Positions 16,229 through 63,430 are shown, counted from the first letter of the stretch. The stretch: DNA of 64,000 nucleotides from Dehalococcoidales bacterium (GCA_041652735.1 JBAZGT010000009.1:4563-68562), one strand, 5' to 3'. Program-made: numbers and translations. The notes: a model not told the origin generated them from the letters alone.

Positions 16229-16993
16229 TCAGGGGCGCAGGAAATAGCCAAAGCCGCGGGCGGTCAACAGGTGCTGCGGATTCACCGGGTCGGTTTCTAT
16301 CTTCTGGCGCAGTGACCATATGTGGGTATCGATAGTTCTTTCGTTGCCTTCATAGTTGAATCCCCATAGCCCTTGCACGATATCGTTCCTCTGGAATATT
16401 TTCCCGGCGTTTTTCGCCAGTAATGAAAGTATGGCGGATTCTCTCGGTGTAATGGGCACTACGCTGCCGTCCTGGCGTTTTAGCTGCTTGTTGGCGGTGT
16501 CAAGCTGATATTGCCCGATTTTTATCTTGACCGGCTCATCCGGATTTTTCACGGGTGCGGCGTGGCTGGAACGCCGGAGGTGATTCCAGATGCGGGCTAA
16601 TAATTCCCGACTGTAAAAAGGCTTGGCGATAAAATCATCCGCCCCGAGTTTGAAACAGGCAATCTTGTCATCTTCAGCGGTGTCGGTGGAAATGATGATA
16701 ATGGGAATATATGATTTTTTACGCATCATTTTGCAGATTGAATGTCCGTGAATATCCGGAAGCTGGATGTCCATAATTACAGCATCGGGATAACAGGCAT
16801 CGAACAGCATTAGTCCGTCTTTACCGTTTAAAGCGGGAATTACCTTAAAGTATTCCTCGGCCAGCGTCATCTTTATCTGTGACAGTGAAGGCTCGTCGCC
16901 GTCGATACAGAGTATTTTCTTCCGCTCTATGGTCGCGCTCATACGCTTAAGACCATCCGGTCCCCGCTGTAGCTGTCCGGTGCTTCGTGCCAT
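16229..16993 (-). CDS. OmpR/PhoB-family response regulator (last gene of the pst unit)
   Basis: Receiver domain (ILCIDGDE...VIMDIQLPD...) plus a winged-helix region (LTPRESAILSLLAKNAG...IDTHIWSLRQKIE). The start may be the internal M (MSATIERKK, 16942). There is no sensor kinase gene in the window. Confidence 0.85.
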   Translation of the reverse strand: MARSTGQLQRGPDGLKRMSATIERKKILCIDGDEPSLSQIKMTLAEEYFKVIPALNGKDGLMLFDACYPDAVIMDIQLPDIHGHSICKMMRKKSYIPIIIISTDTAEDDKIACFKLGADDFIAKPFYSRELLARIWNHLRRSSHAAPVKNPDEPVKIKIGQYQLDTANKQLKRQDGSVVPITPRESAILSLLAKNAGKIFQRNDIVQGLWGFNYEGNERTIDTHIWSLRQKIETDPVNPQHLLTARGFGYFLRP

Positions 16994-17007: not shown

Positions 17008-17769
17008 TTATTCTCCAAGAATCCAGTTGCGCCTGTTTTTCAGATATTCTTTTGTTTCCGGCTGTTGCGGGTTTTTAAAAACCTGTTTCGTTTCTCCGTA
17101 CTCGACCACCCTGCCGTCGGCCATAAAGACCAGAAAGTCGGAGATATTCAGGGCGTCGCTCATATTATGCGTGACCAGTACCTGCGTGTACTCGGTTTTC
17201 ATCTTTAAAATAGTGGACTCCAGCTGGGCGGTGGACACGGGGTCCAGGGAAGAAGAGGGTTCATCGAGCAGTATTACTTCAGGCGAAACGGACAGGGTAC
17301 GCGCGATGCACAAACGCTGCTGTTGCCCCAGTGAAAGCTCCAGCGCGCTGTCTTTAAGCCTTCCGCACAGTTCGTCCCACAGGGCGGCTTTCATCAGGCT
17401 GCTTTTCACGATTTCCTTGTGGTCGTATTTCCGGTTTCTGTCCGCTTTAAGGCCGTATACAACGTTGGACTGGATAGACATTGGAAACGGGTTCGGTCTC
17501 TGAAAAACCATCCCCACCCGCCGCCGCAGCAGAATAGGGTCAATCTGACGGATATCCATGCCGTCCAGCAGGATACTGCCCTTCACTTTACAGGAATTAC
17601 TCATCTCATTGAGGCGGTTTAGACAGCGCAATAAGGTGGTCTTGCCGCAACCGGATGGGCCGATGATGGCGGTAACCGCGCCCTTTTCTATATTAAGGTT
17701 GATGCCCTTGATTACGGCGGTGCCGCCATAATACACGTAAAGGTCCTTAATCGTTATACAAGCGGTCAT
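17008..17769 (-). CDS. pstB: phosphate ABC transporter ATP-binding protein
   Basis: Walker A GPSGCGKTT, LSLGQQQRLCIAR signature, Walker B ILLDEPSSSLD, and a PstB-typical length of 253 aa. Confidence 0.93.
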   Translation of the reverse strand: MTACITIKDLYVYYGGTAVIKGINLNIEKGAVTAIIGPSGCGKTTLLRCLNRLNEMSNSCKVKGSILLDGMDIRQIDPILLRRRVGMVFQRPNPFPMSIQSNVVYGLKADRNRKYDHKEIVKSSLMKAALWDELCGRLKDSALELSLGQQQRLCIARTLSVSPEVILLDEPSSSLDPVSTAQLESTILKMKTEYTQVLVTHNMSDALNISDFLVFMADGRVVEYGETKQVFKNPQQPETKEYLKNRRNWILGE

Positions 17770-17823: not shown

Positions 17824-19179
17824 CTACGCCTGATACCTTTTGGAGTAAGCGCGTTTAAGTATCAGCGAAGCCACGCCGAAGCTGAGGGTAATGATTATCA
17901 GCAACAAAGCCGCTGAATATTCGTAGCCCACCATCGTATCACGGAAAGACTTGGGCCCGCCGAAGTTTACATTGAAAATCAAATGGGAAAGTGATATTAC
18001 TTCAGAAAAAGGCCCGACCCCCGCTTCCCCGGTTGTAGCCATGAAGATCAATATAGATACGCTTCCGGCAGCCTCAGCGCATCCCAGCAGCCATCCCGTA
18101 ATGATGTTGGGCATACTCCACGGTAATAAGATATGAGTAAAAGTGTATCCCTGGGAAGCTCCCATCGCCAGCGAGCCTTCCTTCAGATGCAGCGGCACGG
18201 AGCGCAGGCCTTCTTCCGTGGCGCTGGCTATTAGCGGGATGACCAGCATGGATAGAAATATGGCCGAAAGGATAAACGACCCGTGGGCGATATGCTCGTA
18301 GCCGTTGGCATCCCGGTAATAGCCGGTAATAAATTTGGCGAGGGGGAAATCGTAATTATTCTCGGCCACTCTCACCAGGCTGTAAGCCGTGATGCCCAGA
18401 ATAAAAACAGAAACACCGCGCAGCGCCGTGGTACAAAAGCGTATTATCCCGGCGCTTTTTCCGGCATACTCGCTGATAAAGGCGCCGGTCCCGATACCCA
18501 CCGGGAGAGAAATTATGGACACCAGTATTATCAGCAATAATGTACCCAGGATATGGTTGCTCATCCCGACCTGCTTGCTGGCCTGGTCGTATGAGCTGGT
18601 GATAACCTGCCAATCAAGCTGCGGAACGCCTTCTATCATTAACCGGATTAACACCAGCAGATAACAAATGAGAACGATTAATACCGGGAAGACAATCACC
18701 GGGTATCTCGCTAAATCTTTCGCGCTTGGCGTCGCTCCCTTCAGAAAGAACAGCGCGTAGCTGAAAACAGGCAGCGCTGAAGCTAAAATAAAAACGGCGG
18801 AAACCACCGAACGATTTATGACGGCCTGACCGAGATTATAGTTTCCCACGCCCACCCCGCCCATGTTGAATGTCTCCGGTATCAGGCTGATGATAACGGG
18901 ATATATCACCGCTAAACCCGTTAAGAACATCATCTTTTTTGATATAGTATTTCTGATAATCCGGCTGGTAAACATTAACAGCAGATTGGCTGACGCCAGG
19001 ATTATCAGCAGCGGAATAGTGTACATATCAATTGTGTTTAGACTGATTGACAGGAAACCTATAACCAGGGCGGCTGAAGACACCAGCAAAACCATGCCGG
19101 GGATGATTTTATGCCATAACCCGTTCATTCCGTTTTTAAAATGCGGAGCCGTGGCGGTTGGGGATATTGTCGTGCTCAC
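17824..19179 (-). CDS. pstA: phosphate ABC transporter permease PstA (long form with N-terminal extra TM helices)
   Basis: 451 aa, polytopic. It carries an EAA-like loop (ATEEGLRSVPLHLKEGSLAMGAS). It overlaps pstC by 4 nt. Confidence 0.85.
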   Translation of the reverse strand: MSTTISPTATAPHFKNGMNGLWHKIIPGMVLLVSSAALVIGFLSISLNTIDMYTIPLLIILASANLLLMFTSRIIRNTISKKMMFLTGLAVIYPVIISLIPETFNMGGVGVGNYNLGQAVINRSVVSAVFILASALPVFSYALFFLKGATPSAKDLARYPVIVFPVLIVLICYLLVLIRLMIEGVPQLDWQVITSSYDQASKQVGMSNHILGTLLLIILVSIISLPVGIGTGAFISEYAGKSAGIIRFCTTALRGVSVFILGITAYSLVRVAENNYDFPLAKFITGYYRDANGYEHIAHGSFILSAIFLSMLVIPLIASATEEGLRSVPLHLKEGSLAMGASQGYTFTHILLPWSMPNIITGWLLGCAEAAGSVSILIFMATTGEAGVGPFSEVISLSHLIFNVNFGGPKSFRDTMVGYEYSAALLLIIITLSFGVASLILKRAYSKRYQA

Positions 19180-20117
19180 TTGATTGAAACCTTTTTAAGT
19201 CTTGAAGTTATTATCGTCAGCAGTATCATGATGCCGAAGGCTATTATCAGCAGAAAAAGCGCCGTAAGATAAGCGACCGCGCAGTCATAACCTTCACATG
19301 ACCCGCGTACCTGGAAACCGCCCGCCAGGTTGGCGGCGCTGGATGTCAGGGTGGGTGTTGATTCCAGGATGTCCCATAACGGATTGGTCATGTCCGGCGC
19401 GGCCGCCGGTCTTTCATAGCCGATGGCGAAGGTGACGATAATCAGGTCGCCGATTGCTTTTAAAGACCCCAGGCTTATGGCGGAAATAATGCCCGCCATT
19501 GAATTAGGAAGAGTAATGTGCCATAAGGTATGCCACCGGGACATACCCAGGGCCAGGGAGCCTTCTTTAAGCTCACGGGGGACGTTCTTTATCGCGTCAT
19601 CGATCAGCGGCGCCATAAATGGAATAATCATCAATGCCACCATGAGGCCGCCGAGGAGGGTGTTGTTATTGAGCGAGAACTTGGGCTTCATAATCAGCTC
19701 CACGAATACCACCATCAGCAGGGCGTACACTATCGGCGGTATTCCGGATAGCAGCGTGAGCGCGTTCCGTATGGAGCGGCTGACAACACCGAGGCGGAAC
19801 TCGGATGATATTACGGCCAGCGCCAGGGAAGCCGGCAGGGCGATCCCCAGGGCAAGTATTACCACCATGACCGTGCCCCAGATAGCCGGCAGCATGCCGT
19901 AGACATGAGTGGAAGCGGTGAATTTTCCCACGAACTCCGTGGAGAATATTTCTCCTATCCCGATACCTTTGATGGCCGGCATACTCTGCCAAACCGTCAG
20001 GCTGATAACCGCCAGCAGCATCAGGACGGGTACCGCGGTCAGCAGAAAAGAGATGCCTTTGGGCCAGGACCTCATCCAGGGCCTGGTCTCGCCGAATATG
20101 GAGTTCAGGTGAGGCAT
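19176..20117 (-). CDS. pstC: phosphate ABC transporter permease PstC
   Basis: 313 aa, 6 TM, EAA loop DDAIKNVPRELKEGSLALGMSRW. It starts 6 nt after the preceding cohesin-anchor gene. Confidence 0.85.
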   Translation of the reverse strand: MPHLNSIFGETRPWMRSWPKGISFLLTAVPVLMLLAVISLTVWQSMPAIKGIGIGEIFSTEFVGKFTASTHVYGMLPAIWGTVMVVILALGIALPASLALAVISSEFRLGVVSRSIRNALTLLSGIPPIVYALLMVVFVELIMKPKFSLNNNTLLGGLMVALMIIPFMAPLIDDAIKNVPRELKEGSLALGMSRWHTLWHITLPNSMAGIISAISLGSLKAIGDLIIVTFAIGYERPAAAPDMTNPLWDILESTPTLTSSAANLAGGFQVRGSCEGYDCAVAYLTALFLLIIAFGIMILLTIITSRLKKVSIK

Positions 20118-20123
20118 GCCGTC

Positions 20124-20903
20124 CTAAGACCGCTTTCCTTTTCTTACCACGATAGCGATTACCACCCCGACCACCACCACGCCGGCCACTACGCCGATGA
20201 CGATGCCGGTGGGGAATGAAGAGTCTTTTTCCGCCTGGCTATCAGTTCCCGGCTGGCTGGTTCCCGGCTGACTATCGGTAGCCCCGGACGCGGAACCCGC
20301 CGTGATTACGGCATCGCTTATGACCAGCTCCGGCGCTTTTACGCTATTATAGCCATCCAGATCATAGACGCTGGCGGTGATATCGACTGACCCCGTGCTG
20401 TCTTTAAGATTGCTCGTAGCTATGCTTATATCGGCCTGTCCGTTAGCTATTACTTCAAAAGAATAACGGGCTATAACGCCGCTCCCTTTTACCCCGCTGA
20501 AAGAGGCGATGCCGATGATATCCACATAACCTATATCATTGTATATACCGGACTCGATTGACGGCAGGTCCGGCATGCTGGGCCCGGTTATCATGCTGTC
20601 CGGGGGGAAAAGAGCGTCCGCCGGCATTTCCACGGCTTTACACTTTAGTATTTTAGAGCTGAAACTCAGGGCGAACTGTACGCCGGAGCAGTCATAGTCG
20701 CTGGGAAGCTGCAAATAGACATCGACATCGAATTTGTCTCCCTTGGAAACCTGTAAATCGGATTGAATGCCCGCGGCTGCTGTGTCCGTATCAACACTTA
20801 ATTGAAATCCTGTTTCCGCCATTACCGGCTGGGAGAGCAGTCCCAAGCCCAGCAGGATTACACCCATAAGGCTGATTACTTTTATCTTTATTTTTCCTGG
20901 CAT
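20124..20903 (-). CDS. membrane-anchored cohesin-like protein (signal peptide, one cohesin-like module, S/T/Q/P linker, C-terminal TM anchor)
   Basis: SP LLGLGLLSQPVMA. Module: KGDKFDVDVYLQLPSDYDCSGVQFALSFSSKILKCKAVEM...GVIARYSFEVIANGQADISI. Linker: GSASGATDSQPGTSQPGTDSQ. TM: GIVIGVVAGVVVVGVVIAIVV followed by RKGKRS. Confidence 0.65.
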   Translation of the reverse strand: MPGKIKIKVISLMGVILLGLGLLSQPVMAETGFQLSVDTDTAAAGIQSDLQVSKGDKFDVDVYLQLPSDYDCSGVQFALSFSSKILKCKAVEMPADALFPPDSMITGPSMPDLPSIESGIYNDIGYVDIIGIASFSGVKGSGVIARYSFEVIANGQADISIATSNLKDSTGSVDITASVYDLDGYNSVKAPELVISDAVITAGSASGATDSQPGTSQPGTDSQAEKDSSFPTGIVIGVVAGVVVVGVVIAIVVRKGKRS

Positions 20904-20945
20904 TTCTTTTTTCCTTTCTAACTTTTTTCCCCTGTTTGCTTACCG

Positions 20946-21548
20946 CTATCTCGCCTTTTTCCTGCAGGCCAGCAATAAATACATCACGATTCCCGCTCCG
21001 AATATCGACACCAGAATCAGCATCAGCGTAGACCAGGGAAATGCTTTTATTGCTGCCGCGAGCGCCGGCGGAGCCGCCACCGTATAGTAGACCTTGGTGG
21101 TGGCATCCAGGTCAAAAAACGCCCCCTGTACTCCGGTGACCCGGTGAGCGCTGATATATGCCAGATAAGTGCCCGGCTCGGTATCGGGCGGTAATTCCAG
21201 CGTCAGCTGTATGGATTGTTCTCCGCTGGGTTTCAGCAGGAACGGTTCTTGCGGATTAATGCGTAAATAATCGCCTGATTTGTATTTAGCGGCGTTTGTT
21301 TCCGATATTTCAGCGATGAAATAGCCGTCTACCTTTCCGGGATTCAGGACGATAATATTGGGTAACCTGTATATTTTGCCGCTTTCGAGCGGCTCATCGA
21401 CACGCACTATGCCGGGCACGATGCCTACGCCCATTTCAGTCCCGCCCCTGGCCGGGAACGGGCTCATCTGTATACTTATAATCACCAGTAAAATGGCCGC
21501 GGCCGCCTGGATAAATTTGCCCGCTATGTTCTTCTTATGGGTTTTCAT
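20946..21548 (-). CDS. secreted single-domain protein with C-terminal TM anchor
   Basis: 200 aa. Signal/anchor AAAAILLVIISIQ, an Ig-like body ending in the PPDTEPGTYLAYISAH motif, then TM LMLILVSIFGAGIVMYLLL plus CRKKAR. Confidence 0.6.
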   Translation of the reverse strand: MKTHKKNIAGKFIQAAAAILLVIISIQMSPFPARGGTEMGVGIVPGIVRVDEPLESGKIYRLPNIIVLNPGKVDGYFIAEISETNAAKYKSGDYLRINPQEPFLLKPSGEQSIQLTLELPPDTEPGTYLAYISAHRVTGVQGAFFDLDATTKVYYTVAAPPALAAAIKAFPWSTLMLILVSIFGAGIVMYLLLACRKKAR

Positions 21549-23262
21549 GGGTGGTCGCCTGCAAAGAAATACGTATATTGTGTGGATTGGGGTCTACCGA
21601 GTAGGTAGGCATGAAGATTTTTAGGTCGAAGGTTGCGGTCTGGTCCGGCTTCAGGGCCTGAATCAGCGGCTGATAATCACGCTTCAGGTTAATCCACGTG
21701 GTATTACTGTTCAGGCGCACCTGGTGAGAATACTGTTCATCGCCCGGCGTATCGGCGAGGTACCAGGTGATGCCGTTGTCCCTGGTAGCGTCGGAGCTTT
21801 TTATATCGATATCGATGGTAACTTCGCCGGTATTCTTGACCGTTTGCGTGTCCCACATATCCACGGTACTGCGGGAACCGCCGAATTCTATCGTGCCGTA
21901 TTCTATTAACCCGTCATCGACGGAAAAACTGATGATAACGGCGGCGGCGACGGTGCAATTGATATTCACTTCAGCGGCCATATACGGGTCGCTGACGGAG
22001 CCGGTGTTATTATTTTCCAGGGCTTCCGTAACGGCATCTTCATAATCTACGTAGATTTCCACGATATCTGAATCGCCGGAAACCGTAAATACATAATTCT
22101 GGAAGTTGCCTTCCAGTTCAGCGCCGATACCGAGACTACTGACCGTCTCGGTAATCTGCGGAGAGCTCGAACCGTCCACAAAAGCGCCCACTTTAAAGGC
22201 AGGCGCTTCAAGACTGCCCTGGTTCTTGACCGTGTAATTTATCCGGTAGGCCAGCTGGCCTTCATCCAGTTCCTTGGCTTCAAAATCGGTCAAAACCAGG
22301 TCGGCCATCTGGGGCCATATATAGACGGCCGTGTTATTGTTTTCCGATGACTCTTCCACGATGCCCGTGCCGTCACACTTCAAGGTTATCGCGTCCACGG
22401 TATCTGATAGCGTCACCTCCAGGCCGTTGAAATTCCCCTGGTAGGAATCGCCGGCTGCCAGCACAGGTACCGTCTCGGTGGCCAGCGCCTGGGTCTGGTT
22501 ATCGATAAATAATTGGGCCTGTGATGCCGCCGCATCGGCATCGCCCTGGTTGGTGATGGTGTAATCAATTGAGTACAGACCCGTTTCCTGGTCCAGCCAG
22601 GCAGCCGCCAGGTGGGTAATGGCCAGGTCCGGCATCGGCTCGCCGGTGCCTACCGTCACGGTCCCGTTTTGAATGGTCATTTGCGATTCCGGGGGCAGGG
22701 GCGGCGGCGGCGACTGCAATAGCGCATCGGAACCATCCTGATTGGATATGCTGCTGCCGACGATATTGATATCCGTGGTACCGTTGGTGATGGCTTTGAA
22801 CGTATAACGCGCCATCACACCGCTGCCGTGAGCGGTAGTGGTAAAGGAACTGGGGCCGGTATTATTCGTCTGGCCGGGTGTGCTTACGTCAAAAGCTACA
22901 AAAACCTGGAATGAGGGGGCGGGATAAAGGTAGAAGCTATCGCTCCCCACGTTCACGGCCTGGCATTGGATTATGCTTGGGTCCCAGGTTAGCTGGGCGC
23001 AGGCGCCGCATGACTCATAGCCGCCGGCCAGTTTTATCCAGAGGTCCACATTAAAAGTGGTCCCGGCGGTGATAATAGTACTGGATTGGATATCGCCATC
23101 GCCGGAGGCGACGCAATCGATACTGATACTGGGAGCCGGAGGGGCGGCATCGGCCAAAACAGGCTCCGCTTTACGGCTGACGCCCAGTCCCAGGCTTAAA
23201 ACCGTTACCAGTATCAGGCCTATTTGAAAAACAAGTCTTATTTGCGTCCTGGTCAATAACAT
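21535..23262 (-). CDS. secreted cohesin-like / 2x CARDB-like / C-terminal beta-domain protein
   Basis: SP. Cohesin-like module (TAGTTFNVDLWIKLAGGYESCGACAQLTWDPSIIQCQAVNVG...GVMARYTFKAITNGTTDINI). Two CARDB-like repeats (PDLAITHL...ITNQGDADA...ESSENNNTA and ADLVLTDF...VKNQGSLEA...ALENNNTG). An unclassified 150-aa C-terminal domain. No TM anchor. Confidence 0.7.
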   Translation of the reverse strand: MLLTRTQIRLVFQIGLILVTVLSLGLGVSRKAEPVLADAAPPAPSISIDCVASGDGDIQSSTIITAGTTFNVDLWIKLAGGYESCGACAQLTWDPSIIQCQAVNVGSDSFYLYPAPSFQVFVAFDVSTPGQTNNTGPSSFTTTAHGSGVMARYTFKAITNGTTDINIVGSSISNQDGSDALLQSPPPPLPPESQMTIQNGTVTVGTGEPMPDLAITHLAAAWLDQETGLYSIDYTITNQGDADAAASQAQLFIDNQTQALATETVPVLAAGDSYQGNFNGLEVTLSDTVDAITLKCDGTGIVEESSENNNTAVYIWPQMADLVLTDFEAKELDEGQLAYRINYTVKNQGSLEAPAFKVGAFVDGSSSPQITETVSSLGIGAELEGNFQNYVFTVSGDSDIVEIYVDYEDAVTEALENNNTGSVSDPYMAAEVNINCTVAAAVIISFSVDDGLIEYGTIEFGGSRSTVDMWDTQTVKNTGEVTIDIDIKSSDATRDNGITWYLADTPGDEQYSHQVRLNSNTTWINLKRDYQPLIQALKPDQTATFDLKIFMPTYSVDPNPHNIRISLQATTHENP

Positions 23263-23278
23263 ACTCTACTCCGATTGT

Positions 23279-24343
23279 TTATCTTCCCCGCCTACGGGAA
23301 ACGATTATAAATATTGTCATGCCCACGGTTACTACGGAGGCGAAGACCGCTATCATGGTATACCACGGGAAAGCCAAGACCTTTTCCTGTTCCATGTCGC
23401 CCAGCACTGCGGTGTTGCCGTAATCACGGAGCAGCCTTTCCTGCTCATCCGGCGGCAGGGTTGGCGTTGCCTCTTCTTTTAAAGGCTCCAGCACTTCAAA
23501 TTCAGCTTCCCGGCTGTCTATAAGCTCATCTACCGTATTTCCGCTAGCATCGGCGGCGGGATGGTATACGCTGGATTTCATCCTGTATTTCCCGGCCGGC
23601 AGTCCTTCCTGTAATGTCTGGGTAAAGCGGAAGGAGAACTCGGGAACGATTGAACTCGTGGTGAGTGAAGTATTGCTGGAGATTACCATTTCCCCGCTGG
23701 AATTACGTATCTCTAACGCGTTATAAGCTTTATAATGATGGTTTCCCGTGTTTTTTACGATTGTCTGAATCGGTATAGGCTCACCGGATGGCACGGTTTC
23801 CGCCATCAGGTCGGTTATCTCGCCTTGATGTGTGAGCCCGGCGTTTACCGGCGTTAAGATAACCGGGACCTTTATTCCCTGAGCGAAATCCATGCTTTCC
23901 ATGGAGCTTTCCGGGTAAGCCAGGACGTAAATAAGGGCATACAACGTGCCGTCTTCATTAAAATCATCCGGTATTTTTATGGTGAATTTGGCCTCTTGTT
24001 CCTCGCCGCCCTTCAGGGTGAAAGAGGCGTTTTCTATGTTGCTTATATAAGGAAGGGCGGTAAAGGGGGAAATATCGTGGATTTCGTCCAGTACTTCGTA
24101 GATGCCGTCCAGGTTTTGCCCGAAACCGGCTGATAAGATATTGACTATCAGCGCCGGGTCATTGGCCTTACTTGAAACGAATATCTCGTGGGTGTATGAC
24201 TGCCCGGCCTGGACATCGATATCACAGATGCCGTTGCGGACACGCAGCGACGGGCCATCCGCCTGGACCGGAATGACGCCCAGGAGCTGTAGCCCCAAGC
24301 CCAGTAATAATACGATAATTGGCGATATTATTTTCTTCATCAA
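23279..24343 (-). CDS. secreted two-module protein with C-terminal TM anchor
   Basis: 354 aa. SP LLLGLGLQLLGVIPVQA, two Ig-like modules, an acidic linker, then TM YTMIAVFASVVTVGMTIFIIV plus SRRRGR. It is the first gene after the Pho-type promoter. Confidence 0.65.
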   Translation of the reverse strand: MMKKIISPIIVLLLGLGLQLLGVIPVQADGPSLRVRNGICDIDVQAGQSYTHEIFVSSKANDPALIVNILSAGFGQNLDGIYEVLDEIHDISPFTALPYISNIENASFTLKGGEEQEAKFTIKIPDDFNEDGTLYALIYVLAYPESSMESMDFAQGIKVPVILTPVNAGLTHQGEITDLMAETVPSGEPIPIQTIVKNTGNHHYKAYNALEIRNSSGEMVISSNTSLTTSSIVPEFSFRFTQTLQEGLPAGKYRMKSSVYHPAADASGNTVDELIDSREAEFEVLEPLKEEATPTLPPDEQERLLRDYGNTAVLGDMEQEKVLAFPWYTMIAVFASVVTVGMTIFIIVSRRRGR

Positions 24344-24348
24344 TACTG

Positions 24349-24402
24349 ATTATACCGGTATGTTGTTAAGGTTCTATCAATACGCCGTTAAAACGTAGTT
24401 AA
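24349..24402 (-). promoter_or_regulatory. Pho-box-type promoter: four TTAACA-like hexamers at exact 11-bp phasing plus consensus -10
   Basis: The minus strand reads TTAACT-acgtt-TTAACG-gcgta-TTGATA-gaacc-TTAACA-acataccgg-TATAAT-cagtattg-ATG. Boxes lie at 24397, 24386, 24375 and 24364; the -10 is at 24349..24354. There is no SD, which implies a leaderless or near-leaderless mRNA. Confidence 0.6.
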
Positions 24403-24466
24403 GAGTTTTTAAAATATTTGTTAGGTATATAGTAAGGTGTCCCGGGGTGATACAGGATTTTCTCCC

Positions 24467-24505
24467 CAAAAAAGAAGGAGGGATGGACTGAAATAGTCCA
24501 CCCCC
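24467..24505 (-). terminator. rho-independent terminator after the 828-aa scaffold gene
   Basis: The minus strand reads GGGGTGGACT-atttc-AGTCCATCCC (one mismatch), followed by TCCTTCTTTTTTGG. Confidence 0.6.
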
Positions 24506-24532
24506 CCCCGCGTTATACGGAATTGCCGGTGT

Positions 24533-27019
24533 TTAGAAAACTACCCCGGCGTTGAAGGTTACGCATATGTAGTAAACGTTACCGTTGGTTAGCATGGCGT
24601 CAGCCCACTCCACTTCCTGGCTGAAAGTAATCTGGAAATTTTCGCCCAGATTGCCGTTTTGCCCGTCAGTGTCGCCTTCGCAAATCATCCCCGGCCCCGC
24701 CAGTATCACGGTGAAACTGCCGCACTTGATGATCATGGCATGGTTCAATTTTTCCGGGTTATCAGCGAAAGTGCTGCCGTTCCATTCGGTCATAAAGCCG
24801 TTGGAAATGGAATCTGCATCGCTGACATCTACCTGCCAGGGAACGTTGCTCTTGATGTTCAGTGTGCCGCTAGCCGTGTTGATGCCGATGGTAAGGTGCC
24901 AGGAATCGATATCACTCGGACTGGTAAGCTCGATATCGGCCATGACATTACCGTTGATATCCGTCGTGTCGGAATCGCTTTCATAGGATATCAGGTTGGT
25001 TTTGATGTTGTTGCCCTCATTGGACTCAACAACCAGGCCGGTGCTGTCCGCGGTGATGGTGATGATATCGTAAATACCCACCAGGTTGAAAGGCCCGACG
25101 GCGGTATAGGTCTTCTTCTGTCCGGCCGCCAGGCCGCCGGTTACCGTCACGTTTTTGGTCTGGGCGGGGTCGCCATTGCTCACGGAAACGATGAATTCCG
25201 GGGCGGCCAGGTCGCCGATGTTTTCCACCGTGAAATTAACCCGGTAAGAAACTCCATCGGATATCCAGGTCTCCGCCTTGTAGTTGACGACGATGTCAGG
25301 AAGACCGAACAGGTCGGTGGCGGTGTTGTTGTTTTCGTTCGACTCCGTGATATCCATGATGTAGTCGGCGATGACGGTTATTTCATCGGAGCCGTCGGAT
25401 AGGGTGAAGGGGCCCTTGGTGATATTGGCGCTCGCGCCGCCCACCAGGTTGTTGGGGAACTGGGCGAGAGTAATGAAAGCGCCGTCAATCAGGATACCGC
25501 ACTGGTTGGCTTCGTGCGCGGTAGCCGTGCCGCCGCCGATGTTCTTCACGGTGAAAGAGATGTTGTAGGTCCCGCTACCCTGGTCTACCCACGTTTCATT
25601 AAGGTTTTCGATGGTCAGGTCAGGCAGGGTGGAGGCGGTGATGTTTACGCTGTCGTTATAAACATTCAGGTCAGGTTCGGTAATGGGATTGCCCACATCA
25701 TCGGAGAGGCTGGGGGTGATGAGGCTGATGGCGGCAACGCCGGCGGCCTTCGCTTTGAACTCGTATCTCATGAAGACCTTATTGGTGGAGCTGTCGCCGG
25801 GCAGGTAAAGCAGACCGGTGATAGCTACCTGGCCGGTAGTGTTATTGATGCCGCCGTTGGCAATGGTCGGAAGCTCCGCCAGGGGGCCTACCACGAGGGA
25901 CGGAGGGACCGGATATTTGTAAGGAGCCCCGCTCCCCACGGTTACGGATTTGCATTCCAGTTTATTCTGGTCAAAAGAGAGCGCCGCCGCGGCGCCGGAA
26001 GAAACGAAGCCGCTGGGTACGGTCACCTCGACATCTACGTTGAAGGTAGAGTAAAGGTCGGCGTTGGTCGGGGCGTTGACCGTCATGGCATAAGCGGCGA
26101 AGATGCTGGTCATGGTGTTGTTGGTCTCGTTTTCTTCGGTGATGTCTTCATTACTATCCGCGAAGACGATGATAGTGTCCGTGCCGCCGGTCATGGTAAT
26201 GGGCCCGACGGTCTGTACGGGAGTGCTGGCGCCAGCCGCCAGGTTGCCCAGGGTTACGGAGCCGGCAGCCGGGGTGATGTCCGGGTCGCTGTCCGGGTAA
26301 ACGCCGGTTATCCAGCTGCTGGTGATATCGGCCGCGCCCTGGTTCTTGACGACGAACTTGACCTGGTAGGTGCCCGCATCCGGGTTTATCCATTCCGCGT
26401 ACTGCTGGGTGACGATCAGGTCCGGTCTAGGCTGGGCCACGGTGATGGAACCGCCCTGCACGTTCAGGCCGGATCCCTGGAGAATAGGAGATTCGCCACT
26501 AGGGTCCGACACGCTGGCGCCGACGATGTTGATGTTGGTGCTGCCCGCGCCGATGGCATGGAAGGTGTACCGGGCCATCACGCCGCTGCCCTGGGCGGTG
26601 GCGGAAGAGGAGCTGGGGCCGGTATTATTCGTTTGCCCCGGGGTGGTCAGGTTGAAGGCAACGGCTAAGGAGAATGGCGGAGACGGGAAAAGATAGGGGG
26701 CGGCGCTGCCTATAGTCGCTGCCGTGCACTCCAGCACAGCCGGGTCCCAGGTGAGCTGGGCGGCCGCGCCGGCGGACTCAAAGCCGCTTTCAAGTGATAC
26801 CCATGCGTCTACATCAAAAGACTCACCGATAGCTACCGTTCTGGTCTGCTGTATGTTTCCATCGCCTGAGACGGTGCAATCAATGCTCATGCTCGGCGCC
26901 GCTGGCGGTGCGTCAGCGTAGGCGGCGGCGGCGGGGAGCAAAAATGCAGTGAGAGTCACTATCCCGGCGGCAGCTAAACTGATAGCTTTTGCCCTTATTT
27001 TTTTAAGAGAGCTATTCAA
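24533..27019 (-). CDS. large secreted scaffold protein: cohesin-like / CARDB / cohesin-like / CARDB / CARDB / C-terminal beta-domain
   Basis: 828 aa. SP LTAFLLPAAAAYA. Cohesin-like 1 (IGESFDVDAWVSLESGFESAGAAAQLTWDPAVLECTAATIG...). Cohesin-like 2 (YSTFNVDVEVTVPSGFVSSGAAAALSFDQNKLECKSVTVG...). Three CARDB-like repeats, each starting PDL/PDI and ending E(E/S)NE(T/N/G)NN. The C-terminal domain has SWHL and PWQVDV motifs. No TM anchor. Confidence 0.75.
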   Translation of the reverse strand: MNSSLKKIRAKAISLAAAGIVTLTAFLLPAAAAYADAPPAAPSMSIDCTVSGDGNIQQTRTVAIGESFDVDAWVSLESGFESAGAAAQLTWDPAVLECTAATIGSAAPYLFPSPPFSLAVAFNLTTPGQTNNTGPSSSSATAQGSGVMARYTFHAIGAGSTNINIVGASVSDPSGESPILQGSGLNVQGGSITVAQPRPDLIVTQQYAEWINPDAGTYQVKFVVKNQGAADITSSWITGVYPDSDPDITPAAGSVTLGNLAAGASTPVQTVGPITMTGGTDTIIVFADSNEDITEENETNNTMTSIFAAYAMTVNAPTNADLYSTFNVDVEVTVPSGFVSSGAAAALSFDQNKLECKSVTVGSGAPYKYPVPPSLVVGPLAELPTIANGGINNTTGQVAITGLLYLPGDSSTNKVFMRYEFKAKAAGVAAISLITPSLSDDVGNPITEPDLNVYNDSVNITASTLPDLTIENLNETWVDQGSGTYNISFTVKNIGGGTATAHEANQCGILIDGAFITLAQFPNNLVGGASANITKGPFTLSDGSDEITVIADYIMDITESNENNNTATDLFGLPDIVVNYKAETWISDGVSYRVNFTVENIGDLAAPEFIVSVSNGDPAQTKNVTVTGGLAAGQKKTYTAVGPFNLVGIYDIITITADSTGLVVESNEGNNIKTNLISYESDSDTTDINGNVMADIELTSPSDIDSWHLTIGINTASGTLNIKSNVPWQVDVSDADSISNGFMTEWNGSTFADNPEKLNHAMIIKCGSFTVILAGPGMICEGDTDGQNGNLGENFQITFSQEVEWADAMLTNGNVYYICVTFNAGVVF

Positions 27020-27079: not shown

Positions 27080-28264
27080 TTACTGGGGGGCGATCCACGA
27101 GCGCCCGAGTCTCTTGCCGACGACGACGACATCACCGATATCCACGGCGCCGTTGCCGTTAGCGTCCTTGTGATTGGTGGGATACCAGCCGGACTGCCCG
27201 AGCGCGCGTCCGACGACGACGACGTCACCGATGTCGCAAGCCCTGTTATTGTTCTGGTCCCAGTACAGGGTCTGGGTTACGGCGGTTATGGCATCGTTGG
27301 TGGGTAGTTTGACATACCCCTCGTCAACAACGATAGCCTGGCCCTCGGAGCTAAGTATCCAGTTGACGTAATCAAGGGCTTCAAGCTTGTAGGTGTTGCC
27401 GCCGGTCCTGTCAAAATCCGGGTGCCGGGTGTATAAGTAAAGGAGACGTGACAGCGGGTAGGTGCCGTTACCCACGGTGGTCTGGCTGCACTGTATGGGA
27501 GTGCCGCTGCTGTTCTGGACGGGAATAGTGGTAATTCCGGGAGTAGTGAGGAAACCGAGACCGCAGTAACCTATCTGCGATTCCTCGTGCGTGGGCGCCG
27601 GTGATTCTACCATGCCGGCGATGGCGCTCGCCATGGTGTCATTGCTTTCCAGCCTGTTAAGGCCGGTAGCATCCACCGCTAGCTCTTCTCCCGCTTCGGT
27701 GGCGGAGCCTATCAGGCTCAGGAATGAAGACCGGGTGCCGGAATCTGTAATCCTGGCGCGCGGGATGATGGGATATAGAGACCCGTGAGTACCGGTATAC
27801 CCTGAAAGGCTGTCCCAGTATACTATATCGTTGCCCTGGTAGATATTGTAAAGTTCCACCTTGGTAATGGAAGTGACGCTGCCGTGGATATAAGCGGAAA
27901 GTCCGTCGTTTACGATGACGGCGATTCCGTCCCAGGCTATCTTGGTTTCAAAGACCTTGTTGATATCGTAGCTTGATTCCAGTACTTTGGAACGCATGGC
28001 GATATCGCACTGGGCGGGTTCGGTGAAGAGGGCTACGGAGCCCTGGCCGGAACCGCCGCCCTGGTATTGCAGGTCGATGTTGGGGAAGTCGGACTCGAAT
28101 TGAATTTCGCTGCCGTTTACAATGGGATAAACGGTGGTGGAACCTTTTAGTAGTATACCGACCGGGGCGGCCAGCGCCGGGATAGAGGTTACGAGGATGA
28201 CACCGAGCATCAAGAGGACGCCCAACAGTGCCAATAAAGACTTCTTGCCTTTCAATTTAATCAA
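27080..28264 (-). CDS. PstS-family phosphate-binding protein with C-terminal dockerin-like module
   Basis: SP ending PALA-AP with no lipobox Cys. PstS blocks GSTTVYP, GGGSGQG, DIAMRS, GIAVIVN, DSGTRSSF, GTYPLSRLLYLY. A C-terminal duplicated Ca-loop segment. TTG start with a GGAGGAG SD. Confidence 0.8.
   Translation of the reverse strand: MIKLKGKKSLLALLGVLLMLGVILVTSIPALAAPVGILLKGSTTVYPIVNGSEIQFESDFPNIDLQYQGGGSGQGSVALFTEPAQCDIAMRSKVLESSYDINKVFETKIAWDGIAVIVNDGLSAYIHGSVTSITKVELYNIYQGNDIVYWDSLSGYTGTHGSLYPIIPRARITDSGTRSSFLSLIGSATEAGEELAVDATGLNRLESNDTMASAIAGMVESPAPTHEESQIGYCGLGFLTTPGITTIPVQNSSGTPIQCSQTTVGNGTYPLSRLLYLYTRHPDFDRTGGNTYKLEALDYVNWILSSEGQAIVVDEGYVKLPTNDAITAVTQTLYWDQNNNRACDIGDVVVVGRALGQSGWYPTNHKDANGNGAVDIGDVVVVGKRLGRSWIAPQ
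27083..27259 (-). other. dockerin-like module (two 21-22 aa Ca-loop/helix repeats)
   Basis: DQNNNRACDIGDVVVVGRALG - 10-aa linker - DANGNGAVDIGDVVVVGKRLG. Both follow D-x-N-x-N-x3-D-x-x-D plus a hydrophobic helix. Confidence 0.7.
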
Positions 28265-28429
28265 TTTTCTCCTCCATATTGTTTTATCGGATATTCTCTT
28301 TGCTGAAAAATAACATTAGCAACTCCGCTGAACTATCACCCCCTTTACATAATCACGCTCCAGTATTTTCTTCCCCTCTTGAGCATAAATAATTGTTGTT
28401 AGGGCATCATCTAGACGCCGTGAAAATTG

Positions 28430-28470
28430 TGTAAAGAATGGGTTAATTTTTAGTTAATATTCCGGGTTAA
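28430..28470 (-). promoter_or_regulatory. second set of four Pho-box-like hexamers upstream of the dockerin-PstS unit
   Basis: The minus strand reads TTAACC-N7-TTAACT-N5-TTAACC-N5-TTTACA. The -10 is unclear (TAGATG or GATGAT, 15-17 nt downstream). Confidence 0.45.
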
Positions 28471-28523: not shown

Positions 28524-28557
28524 AAAAAAACGCCCCGGTCTTTTTACTGACGGGGCG
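28524..28557 (-). terminator. rho-independent terminator after lipoprotein pstS
   Basis: The minus strand reads CGCCCCGTC-loop-GAC(C)GGGGCG followed by TTTTTTT. Confidence 0.65.
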
Positions 28558-28584
28558 CTGGATATGCCGGGTGAACGGGCTGTT

Positions 28585-29385
28585 TTAGCCTAACCTGAAA
28601 TAGCCTTCCCTTTCCGCGATGGCCTGCCCTTCCGGCCCCTGGCAAAAGTCCAGGAAATCACGGACACAAGACTTGACATTACCGCGGGTCAGTAATAAAA
28701 GCCTTCTGGTTATGGGATAGGTGCCGTCCTGGAGGGTTTCCAGTGAAGGCTTTATGCCGTTCAGCGTCAGCACTTTGACCGAATCATCCGCGTAAGCCAG
28801 GGATACATAGCCTATCGCCCGCAGGTCTTCAGCGATAACGGTACGCAACGCGCCGTTGCTGGCCTGCAGGATGGCGGTATCCGCGAAATAGGTGCCCGGC
28901 AAGACCGTCTCCAGGAAAGTCTGCTGCGTGCCGGAGCCTTCCTCGCGGGAGACCACGGTAATCTTACCGGACATGCCGCTGACTTCACTCCAGTCCGTAA
29001 TTACCCCGGAGAATATATCCCGCAGCTGCTCCATGGTCAGTCCCGTTATCTGGTTTCCCGGGTTGACGATAACGGCGATGGAGTCTATGGCGATAGGGTA
29101 CTGCTTGACCGGCTTGGCCTCGCTTTCCGTCAACTCCCGTGAGGAGGCCCCTATGTCCACGATGCCGTTGCATACCGAAGAAATACCGCTGCTGGAACCG
29201 CCCCCGGCGACAGTGATTTTTACGTCCGGGTGCAGTCCCATGTATTCTTCTGCCATCACTTCCATCAGCGGCTGGACCGTCGTCGACCCGCTCTCATGTA
29301 TTGTTGTTTCCCCGCTGCTGCATCCGGGCGCCGCCAGCATCAGGCAAATAATGACGATGGCGACTATCGACTTTAGATTTTTCAT
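28585..29385 (-). CDS. pstS: phosphate ABC transporter substrate-binding lipoprotein
   Basis: Lipobox MLAAPGC; PstS blocks GSTTVQP, GGGSSSG, DIGASSR, GSGTQQTF, GTYPITRRLLLL; 266 aa. Confidence 0.9.
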   Translation of the reverse strand: MKNLKSIVAIVIICLMLAAPGCSSGETTIHESGSTTVQPLMEVMAEEYMGLHPDVKITVAGGGSSSGISSVCNGIVDIGASSRELTESEAKPVKQYPIAIDSIAVIVNPGNQITGLTMEQLRDIFSGVITDWSEVSGMSGKITVVSREEGSGTQQTFLETVLPGTYFADTAILQASNGALRTVIAEDLRAIGYVSLAYADDSVKVLTLNGIKPSLETLQDGTYPITRRLLLLTRGNVKSCVRDFLDFCQGPEGQAIAEREGYFRLG

Positions 29386-31931: not shown

Positions 31932-32702
31932 TTAAATCCCCCTGGCCCAGGCCACGGCGTTGGTGAATATCTGCAAGCCGTAAAGGTCCGGCCGCTCTTT
32001 CTCCCGCGTCCAGCGGGGGTGCTGCGTCCAGCGGATAAAGTCCTCCGGGTGGGGCATCAAGCCGAAAATGCGGCCCGTGGCATCACAGATACCGGCGATG
32101 TCACTGACCGAGCCGTTGGGGTTGGCGGGATAGCCGGGGGCCAGCTCTCCCTTTTCATTAACGTACTGCACCACGATATTGAGCTTTTCCAGCACGCCCG
32201 GCGCCGCCGCCAGCTTACCCTCCCCGTGAGCGATGGGCACGTACATACTCTTTATCCCCCTGGTAAAAACGCAGGGGCTTTTCTTGTTCACCTTGAGATA
32301 GACCCAGCGGCACTCGAACTTGCCGGAATCGTTATTGGTAAGCGTTACCGGCTGGGGGCCCTGCCCCTCGATGCCGGGGAGGATGCCGGTCTTCACCAGC
32401 ACCTGGAAGCCGTTGCAAATGCCCAGCAGCAGCCGCCCGTCCGCGACGAATTTCTTAATGTCCTCCCCCAGGCGCAGCCGTATCTCGTTAGCCATAATGC
32501 GCCCGGCGGAGATATCATCGCCGTAGGTAAAGCCGCCGGGAATGACGGCGATGTGGTAATCAGACAGGGATTTTTCTTTGCGGAAAAGCTCGGTGACCAG
32601 CGCCGCGTCCACTGATGCGCCGACCATCTCTAAAGCGATCCGGGTATCCACATCACGGTTGGTACCGGGCGCCCGCAGCATTAAGACTTTAACTGTATTC
32701 AT
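31932..32702 (-). CDS. purQ: phosphoribosylformylglycinamidine synthase, glutaminase subunit
   Basis: Class I GATase triad context GICNGFQ and MPHPE; 256 aa. Confidence 0.93.
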   Translation of the reverse strand: MNTVKVLMLRAPGTNRDVDTRIALEMVGASVDAALVTELFRKEKSLSDYHIAVIPGGFTYGDDISAGRIMANEIRLRLGEDIKKFVADGRLLLGICNGFQVLVKTGILPGIEGQGPQPVTLTNNDSGKFECRWVYLKVNKKSPCVFTRGIKSMYVPIAHGEGKLAAAPGVLEKLNIVVQYVNEKGELAPGYPANPNGSVSDIAGICDATGRIFGLMPHPEDFIRWTQHPRWTREKERPDLYGLQIFTNAVAWARGI

Positions 32703-32818: not shown

Positions 32819-33340
32819 TCATAAGGTTCCGTCCTTATGAAGTCCCCTTTCTTTTTTATATTCCAGATTACTCCGGCAATTATCAATAAAATATACTCTT
32901 TCTCTGCCAGCCTTTCTTAACAATTTTGAGCACAAAGCCAGGCGCGGGGCTAACACGCATCCCAGCTTTCCTTCTTCACGCAAGTAGTTGACCAGACAAT
33001 AAAAATCGCCATCACTGCTCACGATTATCGCTTTTTCGTAGTTGTTAAAGTCTATCATCGCCTGTAATACCAACTCGGCGTCACAATTGCCTTTAACTCT
33101 TCCATCCGGTGTTTGCAGGATAGGTTTGAAAATCAGGATAAATCCCGCGGACTGTAAAAAAGTATAAAGCGCCGTGTTTTCCGGTATGTATCCAAAAAAG
33201 TAATAGGCCTTACCAACTCCATAATGTTCACTCAGGTAGATTCTGAAACGGCGGTAGTCCAAATCCCAGCCAATCCTTTTCATGGTCTGGTGAATATTGG
33301 TGCCGTCAATAAACGCGTAGTTAACCTGCGGCTTTTTCAA
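32819..33340 (-). CDS. NYN-domain (LabA/DUF88-like, PIN-related) protein
   Basis: AFIDGTNIHQ...GNCDAELVLQAM...IIVSSDGDF acidic-residue pattern of NYN nucleases. 173 aa, visibly AT-richer than both flanking pur genes. Confidence 0.75.
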   Translation of the reverse strand: MKKPQVNYAFIDGTNIHQTMKRIGWDLDYRRFRIYLSEHYGVGKAYYFFGYIPENTALYTFLQSAGFILIFKPILQTPDGRVKGNCDAELVLQAMIDFNNYEKAIIVSSDGDFYCLVNYLREEGKLGCVLAPRLALCSKLLRKAGRERVYFIDNCRSNLEYKKERGLHKDGTL

Positions 33341-61690: not shown

Positions 61691-62171
61691 AACTGTAACG
61701 GTTTACTTTTCTTTAGGCTCCAATCTGGGCAACCGGCAGGAAAACCTGGACCGCGCCCTGAAGCTGCTTTCCGAGCGCATGAGGATGGGCAAGGTCTCCG
61801 GCATTTACGATACCGAGCCTATCGGCCCCGTCAGCCAGCCGCGCTTTTTGAACCTCGCCTGCGAGGCGTTCACCCGCCTGACCCCGGAGGGCCTGCTGGC
61901 TTTAGTGAAGGGCATCGAGCTCAAGATGGGGCGGTATAGTCGCTCCGGCGAGCCGCGCATCATCGACATCGACATCCTGCTCTACGGGGATAAGGAGGTC
62001 AATACCAAAGACCTGGTGATTCCCCACCCGAGCATGGCGGAGCGCTCCTTCGTGCTCATTCCGCTGGCGGAAATAGCCCCGGACGTGGAGCACCCGGTGC
62101 TGAAGAAGAAAATCAGGGAGCTGAACAAGGCCATTAAAGAGGTTCAAGGGGTGATGAAGCTGGAGGGGTGA
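61653..62171 (+). CDS. folK: 2-amino-4-hydroxy-6-hydroxymethyldihydropterin pyrophosphokinase
   Basis: YFSLGSNLGNR, IDIDILLYG and HPSMAERSFVLIPL. The true start may be the GTG at 61683, which overlaps the folP stop. Confidence 0.88.
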   Translation: MMLSSEGGLSVNETVTVYFSLGSNLGNRQENLDRALKLLSERMRMGKVSGIYDTEPIGPVSQPRFLNLACEAFTRLTPEGLLALVKGIELKMGRYSRSGEPRIIDIDILLYGDKEVNTKDLVIPHPSMAERSFVLIPLAEIAPDVEHPVLKKKIRELNKAIKEVQGVMKLEG

Positions 62172-62277
62172 GGGATTAGGGAGTTTTGGGGAAAGGGGGA
62201 AGTTAACAGTAGACGGTAAACGGTGGGGGGAAAAGGGGAGGGGACGGTACACTCTAAACTGTTAACTATCAACTAAT

Positions 62278-62646: not shown

Positions 62647-62700
62647 CCCCCACCCCCCAGCAGGGGTGGGTGGTATTGGGAGTAGAAGAAAGGATACGAA

Positions 62701-63420: not shown

Positions 63421-63430
63421 CTCCTTTCAT

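Follow-up and report, generated by a model that had tools for sequence, protein, structure and literature searches.

A probable cohesin-dockerin tether within the phosphate-transporter gene cluster of a Dehalococcoidales bacterium

Cohesin and dockerin modules are found widely in organisms other than cellulose degraders, where their role has been left open. A 64,000-nucleotide stretch of DNA from a Dehalococcoidales bacterium (GCA_041652735.1, JBAZGT010000009.1:4563-68562; hereafter the window) bears on this question, given that three genes for secreted proteins with cohesin modules (positions 20,124 to 27,019) are found there between the gene of a PstS-family binding protein that ends in a dockerin (PstS-2) and the genes of the corresponding permease and ATPase (PstCAB). 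It is likely that these genes encode a non-cellulosomal cohesin-dockerin tether, built into the operon of a phosphate ATP-binding cassette (ABC) transporter, that holds and multiplies PstS-2 at the cell surface.

The closest described systems are the cellulosomes, such as those of Acetivibrio/Clostridium thermocellum (CipA with OlpB/SdbA) and Ruminococcus flavefaciens (the Sca cluster, with ScaE). They share with the window the homologous cohesin fold and the two-repeat dockerin, the presence of several cohesins on secreted scaffolds together with one cell-anchored cohesin protein, and the grouping of scaffold and client in one gene cluster. There is also a precedent for a docked protein that is not an enzyme, namely CttA of R. 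flavefaciens, a non-enzymatic binding protein that docks via its C-terminal dockerin (PMC2930009). In contrast to cellulosomes, however, the client in the window is the substrate-binding protein of an ABC transporter and not a glycoside hydrolase or a cellulose binder, the anchor is a C-terminal transmembrane helix instead of an S-layer homology (SLH) domain or a sortase signal, CARDB repeats act as spacers and the setting is pstSCAB. Carbohydrate-active enzymes (CAZymes) and carbohydrate-binding modules (CBMs) are missing from the window; no such domain scored above threshold in the cluster, in the scanned neighbour genes or in the related cassettes. Moreover, the scaffolds of the window carry no dockerin, so that there is no cohesin-dockerin hierarchy within it. 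As a tether, the system would correspond to that part of a cellulosome which anchors it to the cell. The other class to be considered is that of the non-cellulosomal cohesins and dockerins, e.g., 2xdh of Archaeoglobus fulgidus, whose hosts are likewise not cellulose degraders; what sets the window apart from these systems is that a specific function is indicated by its client and its genomic context.

Monoderm bacteria and archaea keep their substrate-binding proteins by means of a lipoprotein anchor, a transmembrane anchor or a fusion to the permease, and Dehalococcoidia are monoderm and often wall-less. The problem posed by the window is the same, that of a secreted protein to be kept beside its permease, and the second binding protein of the locus, PstS-1, apparently uses the lipid route. 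The tether of PstS-2, in contrast, would be a non-covalent dockerin-cohesin plug on separate scaffolds that offer four sockets. The display of PstS on extracellular structures is known from Pseudomonas aeruginosa, where PstS-rich surface appendages are induced by phosphate limitation (Zaborina et al., 2008, PMC2242829); unlike the proteins of the window, these belong to a diderm, depend on Hxc type II export, involve neither cohesin nor dockerin and are tied to adhesion and virulence (PMC2242829). A full-text literature search, of incomplete coverage, returned no link between a dockerin and PstS, a phosphate-binding protein or the binding protein of any ABC transporter, and no cohesins of Dehalococcoidia.

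According to open reading frame (ORF) calls and NCBIfam matches, the cohesin genes all lie on the minus strand between pstS-2 and pstC, and the cluster is embedded in pstSCAB. Read along this strand, the order is pstS-1, a terminator, a spacer of 320 nucleotides, pstS-2, the ORFs of 828, 354, 575, 200 and 259 amino acids, pstC, pstA, pstB and a response regulator (Table 1). The intergenic distances within the block range from -14 to 60 nucleotides (6 nucleotides separate the end of the 259-residue gene from the start of pstC), with the sole exception of the 190 nucleotides that follow the 828-residue gene and hold a hairpin. Homologues of PstS, PstC, PstA and PstB are thus encoded together, as in the PstSCAB layout. 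The position of the whole cluster between pstS and pstCAB is the main clue to its function, and it was not stressed in the first-pass annotation of the window, which had been made from the sequence alone.

That annotation had recognised four cohesin-like modules on three secreted proteins, and this claim is borne out by a family profile, by a hidden Markov model (HMM) of validated cohesins and by structure comparison. The four modules, of about 160 residues each, are homologous: they are 29-56% identical to the first of them, and 16 columns of their alignment are invariant, including F-x-V-D, G...L...C and R-Y-x-F. A profile made from just these four matched no solved structure. Among 1.84 billion representative proteins the four-module profile found 219 at E<=1e-3, many with 3-8 copies, and its best matches carry PF00963 above threshold, with scores of 42-165 bits (e.g., 114 and 165). 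In one of the matched proteins, Pfam Cohesin (46 bits) covers residues 616-737 and the profile itself residues 613-762; for P0010 the Pfam and profile matches fall on the same region, and several Cohesin stretches are present in each of P0007 and P0009. When a family profile of 31 sequences (A2) was searched against solved structures, the 21 best matches were all cohesins, led by the cohesin dyad 3l8q of A. cellulolyticus (E=8.9e-12); ScaC of R. flavefaciens was matched as well (E=4.6e-11). A family HMM from which the sequences of the window had been left out scored the four modules at 83-95 bits (module A, 95; module B, 83; module of the 259-residue protein, 94.9), and another, built in the same way from the modules of six Pfam-validated cohesin proteins, scored them at 65-71 bits (65, 65.5 and 65.9, respectively). 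Across the window, matches to the cohesin profile are confined to the 828-, 575- and 259-residue ORFs.

Fold modelling covers one of the four modules, that of the 575-residue protein. Its AlphaFold2 (AF2) model (predicted local distance difference test score, pLDDT, 69.9; predicted TM-score, pTM, 0.68) contains one low-confidence loop at residues 75-102, and the top 50 Foldseek matches in the PDB are all cohesins, of types I, II and III as well as non-cellulosomal, with a target-normalised TM-score of about 0.7-0.75 for the best of them and with A. fulgidus 2xdh at rank 15. For this module, the comparison with type I, II and III cohesins that the first-pass annotation had proposed thus agrees with its claim. 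Given the deeper profiles and the fold match, and with the Pfam model staying under its threshold, the cohesin assignment is secure at the superfamily level, and the modules are a divergent cohesin subfamily that the Pfam model under-detects.

The three cohesin proteins each begin with a signal-peptide-like segment. A Pfam scan of the full-length sequences returned CARDB and no Cohesin domain, with three CARDB repeats in the 828-residue protein (132.5 bits) and two in the 575-residue protein (95.5 bits). Of the two Pfam families first expected in these proteins, CARDB was therefore recovered and Cohesin was not; the five CARDB repeats are all present, four of them with the PDL/PDI start that had been ascribed to all five and one with ADL in its place. 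The 259-residue protein, which ends in ...SQPGTSQPGTDSQAEKDSSFPTGIVIGVVAGVVVVGVVIAIVVRKGKRS, has the Ser/Thr/Gln/Pro linker, the transmembrane helix and the RKGKRS tail originally described for it, and with its helix at residues 232-253 it is, as had been said, the only one of the three to possess a transmembrane anchor. In the 828- and 575-residue proteins, a sequence scan and the dockerin profile revealed neither a C-terminal hydrophobic stretch nor a dockerin. The proposed layout of an anchoring scaffoldin plus extended scaffoldins consequently holds as regards the multi-cohesin scaffolds and the one anchored cohesin, and fails as regards the hierarchy: since the large proteins lack a dockerin, they would not dock onto the cohesin of the 259-residue protein, and a hierarchy of the cellulosome type is unsupported here. 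For the 575-residue protein, word search gave a single homologue, P0003, which comes from a Dehalococcoidia metagenome-assembled genome (MAG).

The presumed client, PstS-2, is a divergent binding protein that scores 73.3 bits with PBP_like_2 and 102 bits with the NCBIfam PstS-family model, under the cutoff of 206.6. Its closest relatives of known structure all bind phosphate, and the motifs S-T-T, G-S-G and R...S-G-T-R, which we take to belong to the ligand site, are invariant in five dockerin-bearing PstS proteins. The signal peptide is of the signal peptidase I (SPase-I) type, with an A-x-A motif and the end ...IPALA/AP, and both a nearby Cys and a lipobox are absent. For these reasons PstS-2 appears to have no anchor of its own and would be a secreted binding protein whose dockerin is its one potential anchor. 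PstS-1, a canonical PstS, has a Cys directly past the h-region of its signal (...LMLAAPGCSSG) and no dockerin, and is possibly a lipoprotein.

The Ca-loops of the two dockerin repeats, DQNNNRACDIGD and DANGNGAVDIGD, are 31 residues apart; both have D or N at positions 1, 3, 5, 9 and 12, and each is followed by VVVVG[RK]xLG. A six-frame scan of the 64 kb found two dockerin-type Ca-loops in total, both in the C-terminus of PstS-2, and the dockerin profile returned nothing beyond this protein even at E<=10, which corroborates the earlier remark that the only dockerin of the window belongs to PstS. When a profile of 13 orthologous tails (A4) was compared with solved structures, its 21 best matches were dockerins (best E=2.6e-7), and EF-hand proteins matched more weakly only. 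Both repeats are kept in 12 orthologues. Four proteins (P0153-P0156) are full-length homologues of PstS-2 that include the dockerin, and two of these (P0153 and P0155) have a precomputed PF00404 assignment.

The nearest relatives of the cassette all come from Dehalococcoidia MAGs and show no more than 31-37% identity; judged by sequence, the placement of the window in Chloroflexota/Dehalococcoidia is based on these relatives and on the mixed labels of a catalase cluster (see below), which include Dehalococcoidales and Chloroflexota. In the locus L002, from a Dehalococcoidales MAG, the gene for a dockerin-bearing PstS is followed by those for an 809-residue protein (two cohesins plus CARDB), a transmembrane protein of 316 residues, a 960-residue protein with two cohesins, a 381-residue protein (cohesin, CARDB and transmembrane helix), a cohesin protein of 195 residues, a 345-residue protein and PstC. 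The locus L003, from a Dehalococcoidia MAG, encodes a dockerin-bearing PstS, a 907-residue protein (three cohesins, CARDB and transmembrane helix), a 996-residue protein with a C-terminal dockerin and a 340-residue cohesin protein, and in L001, the Dehalococcoidia contig that contains P0003, the same proteins are encoded directly upstream of a PstC-like permease. The conserved core thus consists of a PstS with dockerin, a cohesin scaffold with a C-terminal domain like that of the 828-residue protein, a transmembrane protein resembling that of 354 residues, cohesin proteins (one of them with a transmembrane helix) and PstCAB. A PstS with dockerin is present in every cassette seen, and its gene is always the first.

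An alignment of dockerin-bearing PstS proteins was scanned over one genome per species, which gave 80 PstS loci, 10 of them with a dockerin on PstS. As to their origin, the dockerin-bearing loci are recorded as six from Dehalococcoidia/Dehalococcoidales, one each from Chloroflexia, Anaerolineales and unclassified Chloroflexota, and two 1.5-kb contigs labelled Bacillota. Adjacent cohesin modules (2-6) occur in all eight dockerin-bearing loci whose context exceeds 10 kb and in none of the 70 loci whose PstS lacks a dockerin, 18 of which are Chloroflexota by record titles (one-sided Fisher p = 4e-11). A reciprocal look-up gave a similar picture: the four cohesin proteins with an 828-type C-terminal domain from which it started (P0003, P0017, P0013 and P0042) all adjoin phosphate-transporter genes, three of them beside a dockerin-bearing PstS, and for the fourth (P0003, in L001) the contig stops before the expected position of pstS. 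P0017 matches the 809-residue gene of L002 in length and C-terminus. Altogether, about a dozen loci show the linkage to pst, and they represent three classes of Chloroflexota. The first-pass annotation had left room for the link to PstS being incidental; conserved as it is across the cassettes, it is not.

Taken together, these observations suggest the following mechanism. PstS-2 would be exported by means of its SPase-I-type signal peptide and, as it has neither a lipid nor a transmembrane anchor, it would diffuse away if untethered. Its dockerin most likely binds, in a Ca2+-dependent manner, the four cohesin modules of the three co-encoded surface proteins. The 259-residue protein would provide one cohesin socket on a linker of some 30 residues at the membrane, next to PstCAB, and the 828- and 575-residue proteins would raise three further cohesins on their CARDB spacers. 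These large scaffolds are probably held by the transmembrane-anchored partners of 354 and 200 residues, in the case of the 828-residue protein via its pilin-like C-terminal domain. The outcome would be a multivalent, cell-attached array of PstS-2 that captures phosphate and feeds PstCAB, and that is probably induced by phosphate starvation via a Pho-box-like operator ahead of pstS-2. A more general version of this proposal is put forward tentatively, as a possibility that goes well beyond the tether itself: Chloroflexota, and mainly Dehalococcoidia, may have a starvation-induced "phosphate antenna", in which a cohesin scaffold plugs many dockerin-bearing PstS proteins and a few other clients around PstCAB, and in which the scaffolds are fastened to transmembrane partners by a pilin-like, possibly donor-strand, domain.

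The idea that the large scaffolds are retained by transmembrane partners is based on gene order and on a moderate fold match, which make it probable that the 354- and 200-residue proteins retain the 828- and 575-residue scaffolds. The C-terminal domain of the 828-residue protein is conserved in orthologous scaffolds and had no match in Pfam or in PDB sequence searches. Its AF2 model (pLDDT 86, pTM 0.78) resembles mostly donor-strand pilins and fibre subunits among the top 50 Foldseek matches, at modest TM-scores of 0.45-0.55 and E of about 1e-3 to 1e-2; the neighbours include CsuE, FimG/FimF, CfaB, PapA, Pyrodictium cannulae and TasA. As for gene order, a gene with this type of domain is followed by one for a 354-like transmembrane protein in L002/L005, L007, L012, L086 and L087/L088, and L015 has the same order with only a partial match to the domain; orthologues of the 354-residue protein come directly after a scaffold gene in L001, L002, L007, L012, L015, L086 and L087. 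Likewise, the 575-residue gene of the window directly precedes the gene of the 200-residue transmembrane protein, in which the AFPW-x-T juxtamembrane motif, the transmembrane helix and the basic tail resemble those of the 354-residue protein (E=3e-5). The C-terminal tail of these two proteins could be a sorting signal and not a permanent anchor. No family match was obtained for the 200-residue protein in Pfam or NCBIfam, and homology between the C-terminal domains of the 575- and 828-residue proteins was not shown (hhalign E=0.087; partial HMM match).

In layout only, this arrangement recalls the clusters of WxL proteins and WxL-interacting proteins (DUF916) of Firmicutes, in which an anchorless secreted protein is accompanied by an adjacent protein made of an ectodomain and a transmembrane helix. 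The 354-residue protein was considered as a WxL-interacting protein (PF06030) and the assignment was rejected: its match to WxLIP_PGBD spans nearly the whole model but, at 15.5 bits, is far under the cutoff of 27.3, and among the four orthologues scanned the same model gave 12.3 bits in one and nothing in the other three. A WxL domain in the C-termini of the scaffolds was rejected as well, with no WxL match in Pfam and an empty PDB sequence search.

With regard to regulation, the array of TTHAC hexamers upstream of pstS-2, which we take to be comparable to PhoP/PhoB boxes, is a putative Pho-box-like operator. It occurs once in the window (0.00 expected from 100 shuffles) and overlaps a promoter-like site at 28435-28406, and the same pattern is found just upstream of PstS in the Dehalococcoidales locus L066 (9692-9729). 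The response regulator encoded after pstB has several OmpR-family matches, and the PhoB models of NCBIfam (about 139-140 bits) are among them. Two terminators bracket pstS-2 and the 828-residue gene, which therefore look like one transcription unit, and expression would be attenuated ahead of the membrane components. Attenuation after the genes of binding proteins is common.

Several points weigh against the tether as proposed. The isolated cohesin modules score 16.1, 16.1 and 18.3 bits with the Pfam Cohesin model (PF00963; gathering cutoff 24.1 bits), although the matches span nearly all of it, that of the 259-residue protein has no match, and Dockerin_1 (PF00404; cutoff 22.9 bits) scores the isolated tail at 19.6 bits and full-length PstS-2 at 14.9 bits. 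The pairing of cohesin with dockerin is suggested by their genomic co-occurrence, and given that the eight positive loci are mutually related, the association partly reflects shared ancestry and its p value overstates their independence. A PstS held distally on the 828-residue scaffold cannot reach the permease unless it is released, and the outer cohesins may serve otherwise. The ligand of PstS-2 could be another phosphorus oxyanion, since PstS-2, PstC, PstA and PstB all score under the NCBIfam equivalog cutoffs. Finally, the inventory of dockerins covers the 64-kb window, a homologue search with the dockerin profile gave short fragments only and was uninformative on other cargoes, and further dockerin proteins are encoded in related cassettes: a 996-residue DUF7901/GEVED/CARDB protein in L003 (14274-17264), an ORF upstream of PstS in L007 (223-1083), a 615-residue protein with weak cohesin matches in L018 (9180-11024) and, in L086 (12366-15518), a 1050-residue adaptor scaffoldin of the order cohesin-dockerin-cohesin-cohesin, the only scaffoldin with an internal dockerin among the loci examined. 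It follows that PstS is not the sole client, and the platform is probably not exclusive to it.

Carried to its end, this last argument leads to a general platform for scavenging phosphorus, on which many dockerin proteins encoded elsewhere (phosphatases, nucleases, binding proteins) would assemble and for which PstS-2 would be merely a neighbouring client. The extra dockerin proteins of L003, L007 and L018 agree with such a platform, as does the higher-order assembly implied by the adaptor of L086, and in the window itself four cohesins face a single visible dockerin. We regard it as unlikely, however, since PstS is the constant partner, encoded first in each cassette, and a dockerin-bearing phosphatase or nuclease was seen in none of the loci.

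It is a good deal harder to credit that the modules do not interact at all, the cohesin/CARDB proteins being adhesins or S-layer-like envelope proteins and the tail of PstS-2 a Ca-binding stabiliser or a ligand of some other envelope component. CARDB has been described as an adhesion-related domain, the Foldseek matches include cohesin-like folds that do not dock, e.g., in glycosidases of C. perfringens, and the subthreshold Pfam scores of both module types in the window, where cohesin-dockerin binding is a prediction, fit this explanation. Nevertheless, both modules have homologues that are proven to bind each other, and the strict co-occurrence described above, which extends to Chloroflexota pst loci that have neither the dockerin nor the cohesins, would be hard to understand if the modules did not interact. 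A true cellulosome, or some other multienzyme complex for the degradation of polysaccharides, with its enzymes encoded elsewhere and its pst neighbourhood a coincidence, would account for the two module types and the multi-cohesin scaffold, but it is very improbable in view of the recurrent linkage to pst and of the absence of glycoside hydrolases, CBMs, SLH domains and sortase anchors from the window and the related cassettes.

Table 1. Features of the pst-cohesin cluster, in window coordinates (aa, amino acids; TM, transmembrane).
Feature	Position	Strand	Description
OmpR/PhoB-family response regulator	16229..16993	-	directly downstream of pstB; Pfam Response_reg and Trans_reg_C
pstB ATPase	17008..17769	-	top NCBIfam match PstB, 324 bits, under equivalog cutoff
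pstA permease	17824..19179	-	top NCBIfam match PstA, 145.5 bits over aa 161-445, under equivalog cutoff
pstC permease	19176..20117	-	top NCBIfam match PstC, 156.9 bits, under equivalog cutoff
259-aa protein	20124..20903	-	signal peptide, cohesin, S/T/Q/P linker, TM helix, RKGKRS tail
C-terminal TM helix, 259-aa protein (aa 232-253)	20145..20210	-	hydrophobic run, followed by RKGKRS
Cohesin module, 259-aa protein (aa 29-214)	20262..20819	-	no Pfam match; matched by deeper HMMs
200-aa protein	20946..21548	-	signal peptide, one domain, AFPW motif, C-terminal TM helix, CRKKAR tail
575-aa scaffold	21535..23262	-	cohesin, two CARDB repeats, further C-terminal domain
Two CARDB repeats, 575-aa protein	22003..22632	-	Pfam CARDB 95.5 bits, 2 stretches, best aa 211-312
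Cohesin module, 575-aa protein (aa 41-213)	22624..23142	-	Pfam Cohesin 18.3 bits; AF2 and Foldseek
354-aa protein	23279..24343	-	signal peptide, conserved ectodomain of ~260 aa, AFPW motif, C-terminal TM helix, RRRGR tail
Terminator/attenuator hairpin after 828-aa gene	24468..24509	-	15-bp stem, -25.8 kcal/mol, z -5.5, followed by U-run
828-aa scaffold	24533..27019	-	cohesin A, CARDB, cohesin B, CARDB, CARDB, pilin-like C-terminal domain
C-terminal domain, 828-aa protein (aa 677-828)	24536..24991	-	conserved 152 residues, pilin-like beta-sandwich model
CARDB repeat 3, 828-aa protein	25007..25300	-	Pfam CARDB; PDI...ESNEGNN boundaries
CARDB repeat 2, 828-aa protein	25325..25624	-	Pfam CARDB; PDL...ESNENNN boundaries
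Cohesin module B, 828-aa protein (aa 306-468)	25616..26104	-	Pfam Cohesin 16.1 bits
CARDB repeat 1, 828-aa protein	26117..26425	-	Pfam CARDB, best stretch aa 198-304
Cohesin module A, 828-aa protein (aa 39-201)	26417..26905	-	Pfam Cohesin 16.1 bits, profile positions 8-128 of 139
pstS-2	27080..28264	-	divergent PstS-family binding protein, C-terminal dockerin
PstS-2 dockerin	27095..27271	-	two repeats, DQNNNRACDIGDVVVVGRALG and DANGNGAVDIGDVVVVGKRLG
Pho-box-like array	28420..28457	-	four phased TTHAC hexamers, 11-bp period, ~160-190 nt upstream of pstS-2
Intrinsic terminator after pstS-1	28524..28559	-	hairpin -18.1 kcal/mol, z -4.7, followed by U7
pstS-1	28585..29385	-	NCBIfam PstS-family 234.6 bits (cutoff 206.6); Pfam PBP_like_2 140.5 bits

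Among the transporter genes, pstA (17824-19179) is peculiar in that about 160 residues with extra hydrophobic segments precede the region matched by the PstA model (residues 161-445). Other parts of the window also deserve mention. The purine genes comprise PurQ (31932-32702), an NYN-domain gene (32819-33340) and a 949-residue protein (33347-36196) in which one or more N-terminal PurS-like domains (Pfam PurS, two stretches) are fused to PurL, the NYN-domain gene lying between the other two. The catalase gene at 38554-40068 belongs to a cluster of at least 90% identity whose 252 members come from MAGs that bear the labels Dehalococcoidales, Chloroflexota, Deltaproteobacteria and Acidobacteria, and these mixed labels suggest recent horizontal spread or mis-binning. 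The hybrid sensor kinase encoded at 43536-48026 (1496 residues) contains six or more PAS domains as well as GAF, HisKA/HATPase and receiver domains, and the last part of the window (62001-64000) has a G+C content of 0.416, against about 0.55 in the rest. Rfam and tRNA scans of the window gave no matches.

The proposed phosphate antenna would, if true, apparently be the first case in which the physiological client of a non-cellulosomal cohesin-dockerin system has been identified. In the cassette both the client (PstS) and the neighbour (PstCAB) are defined, the probable signal is phosphate starvation and nature supplies about a dozen variants, so that the role of a non-cellulosomal cohesin-dockerin pair can be tested directly with a small number of recombinant modules; the same pair would be a natural plug and socket for the immobilisation of phosphate-binding proteins. 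For the biology of these organisms, the antenna would represent a third route by which monoderms retain their binding proteins, besides lipidation and transmembrane or permease fusion, and it would bear on the way in which slow-growing bacteria of the subsurface and of sediments compete for scarce phosphate.

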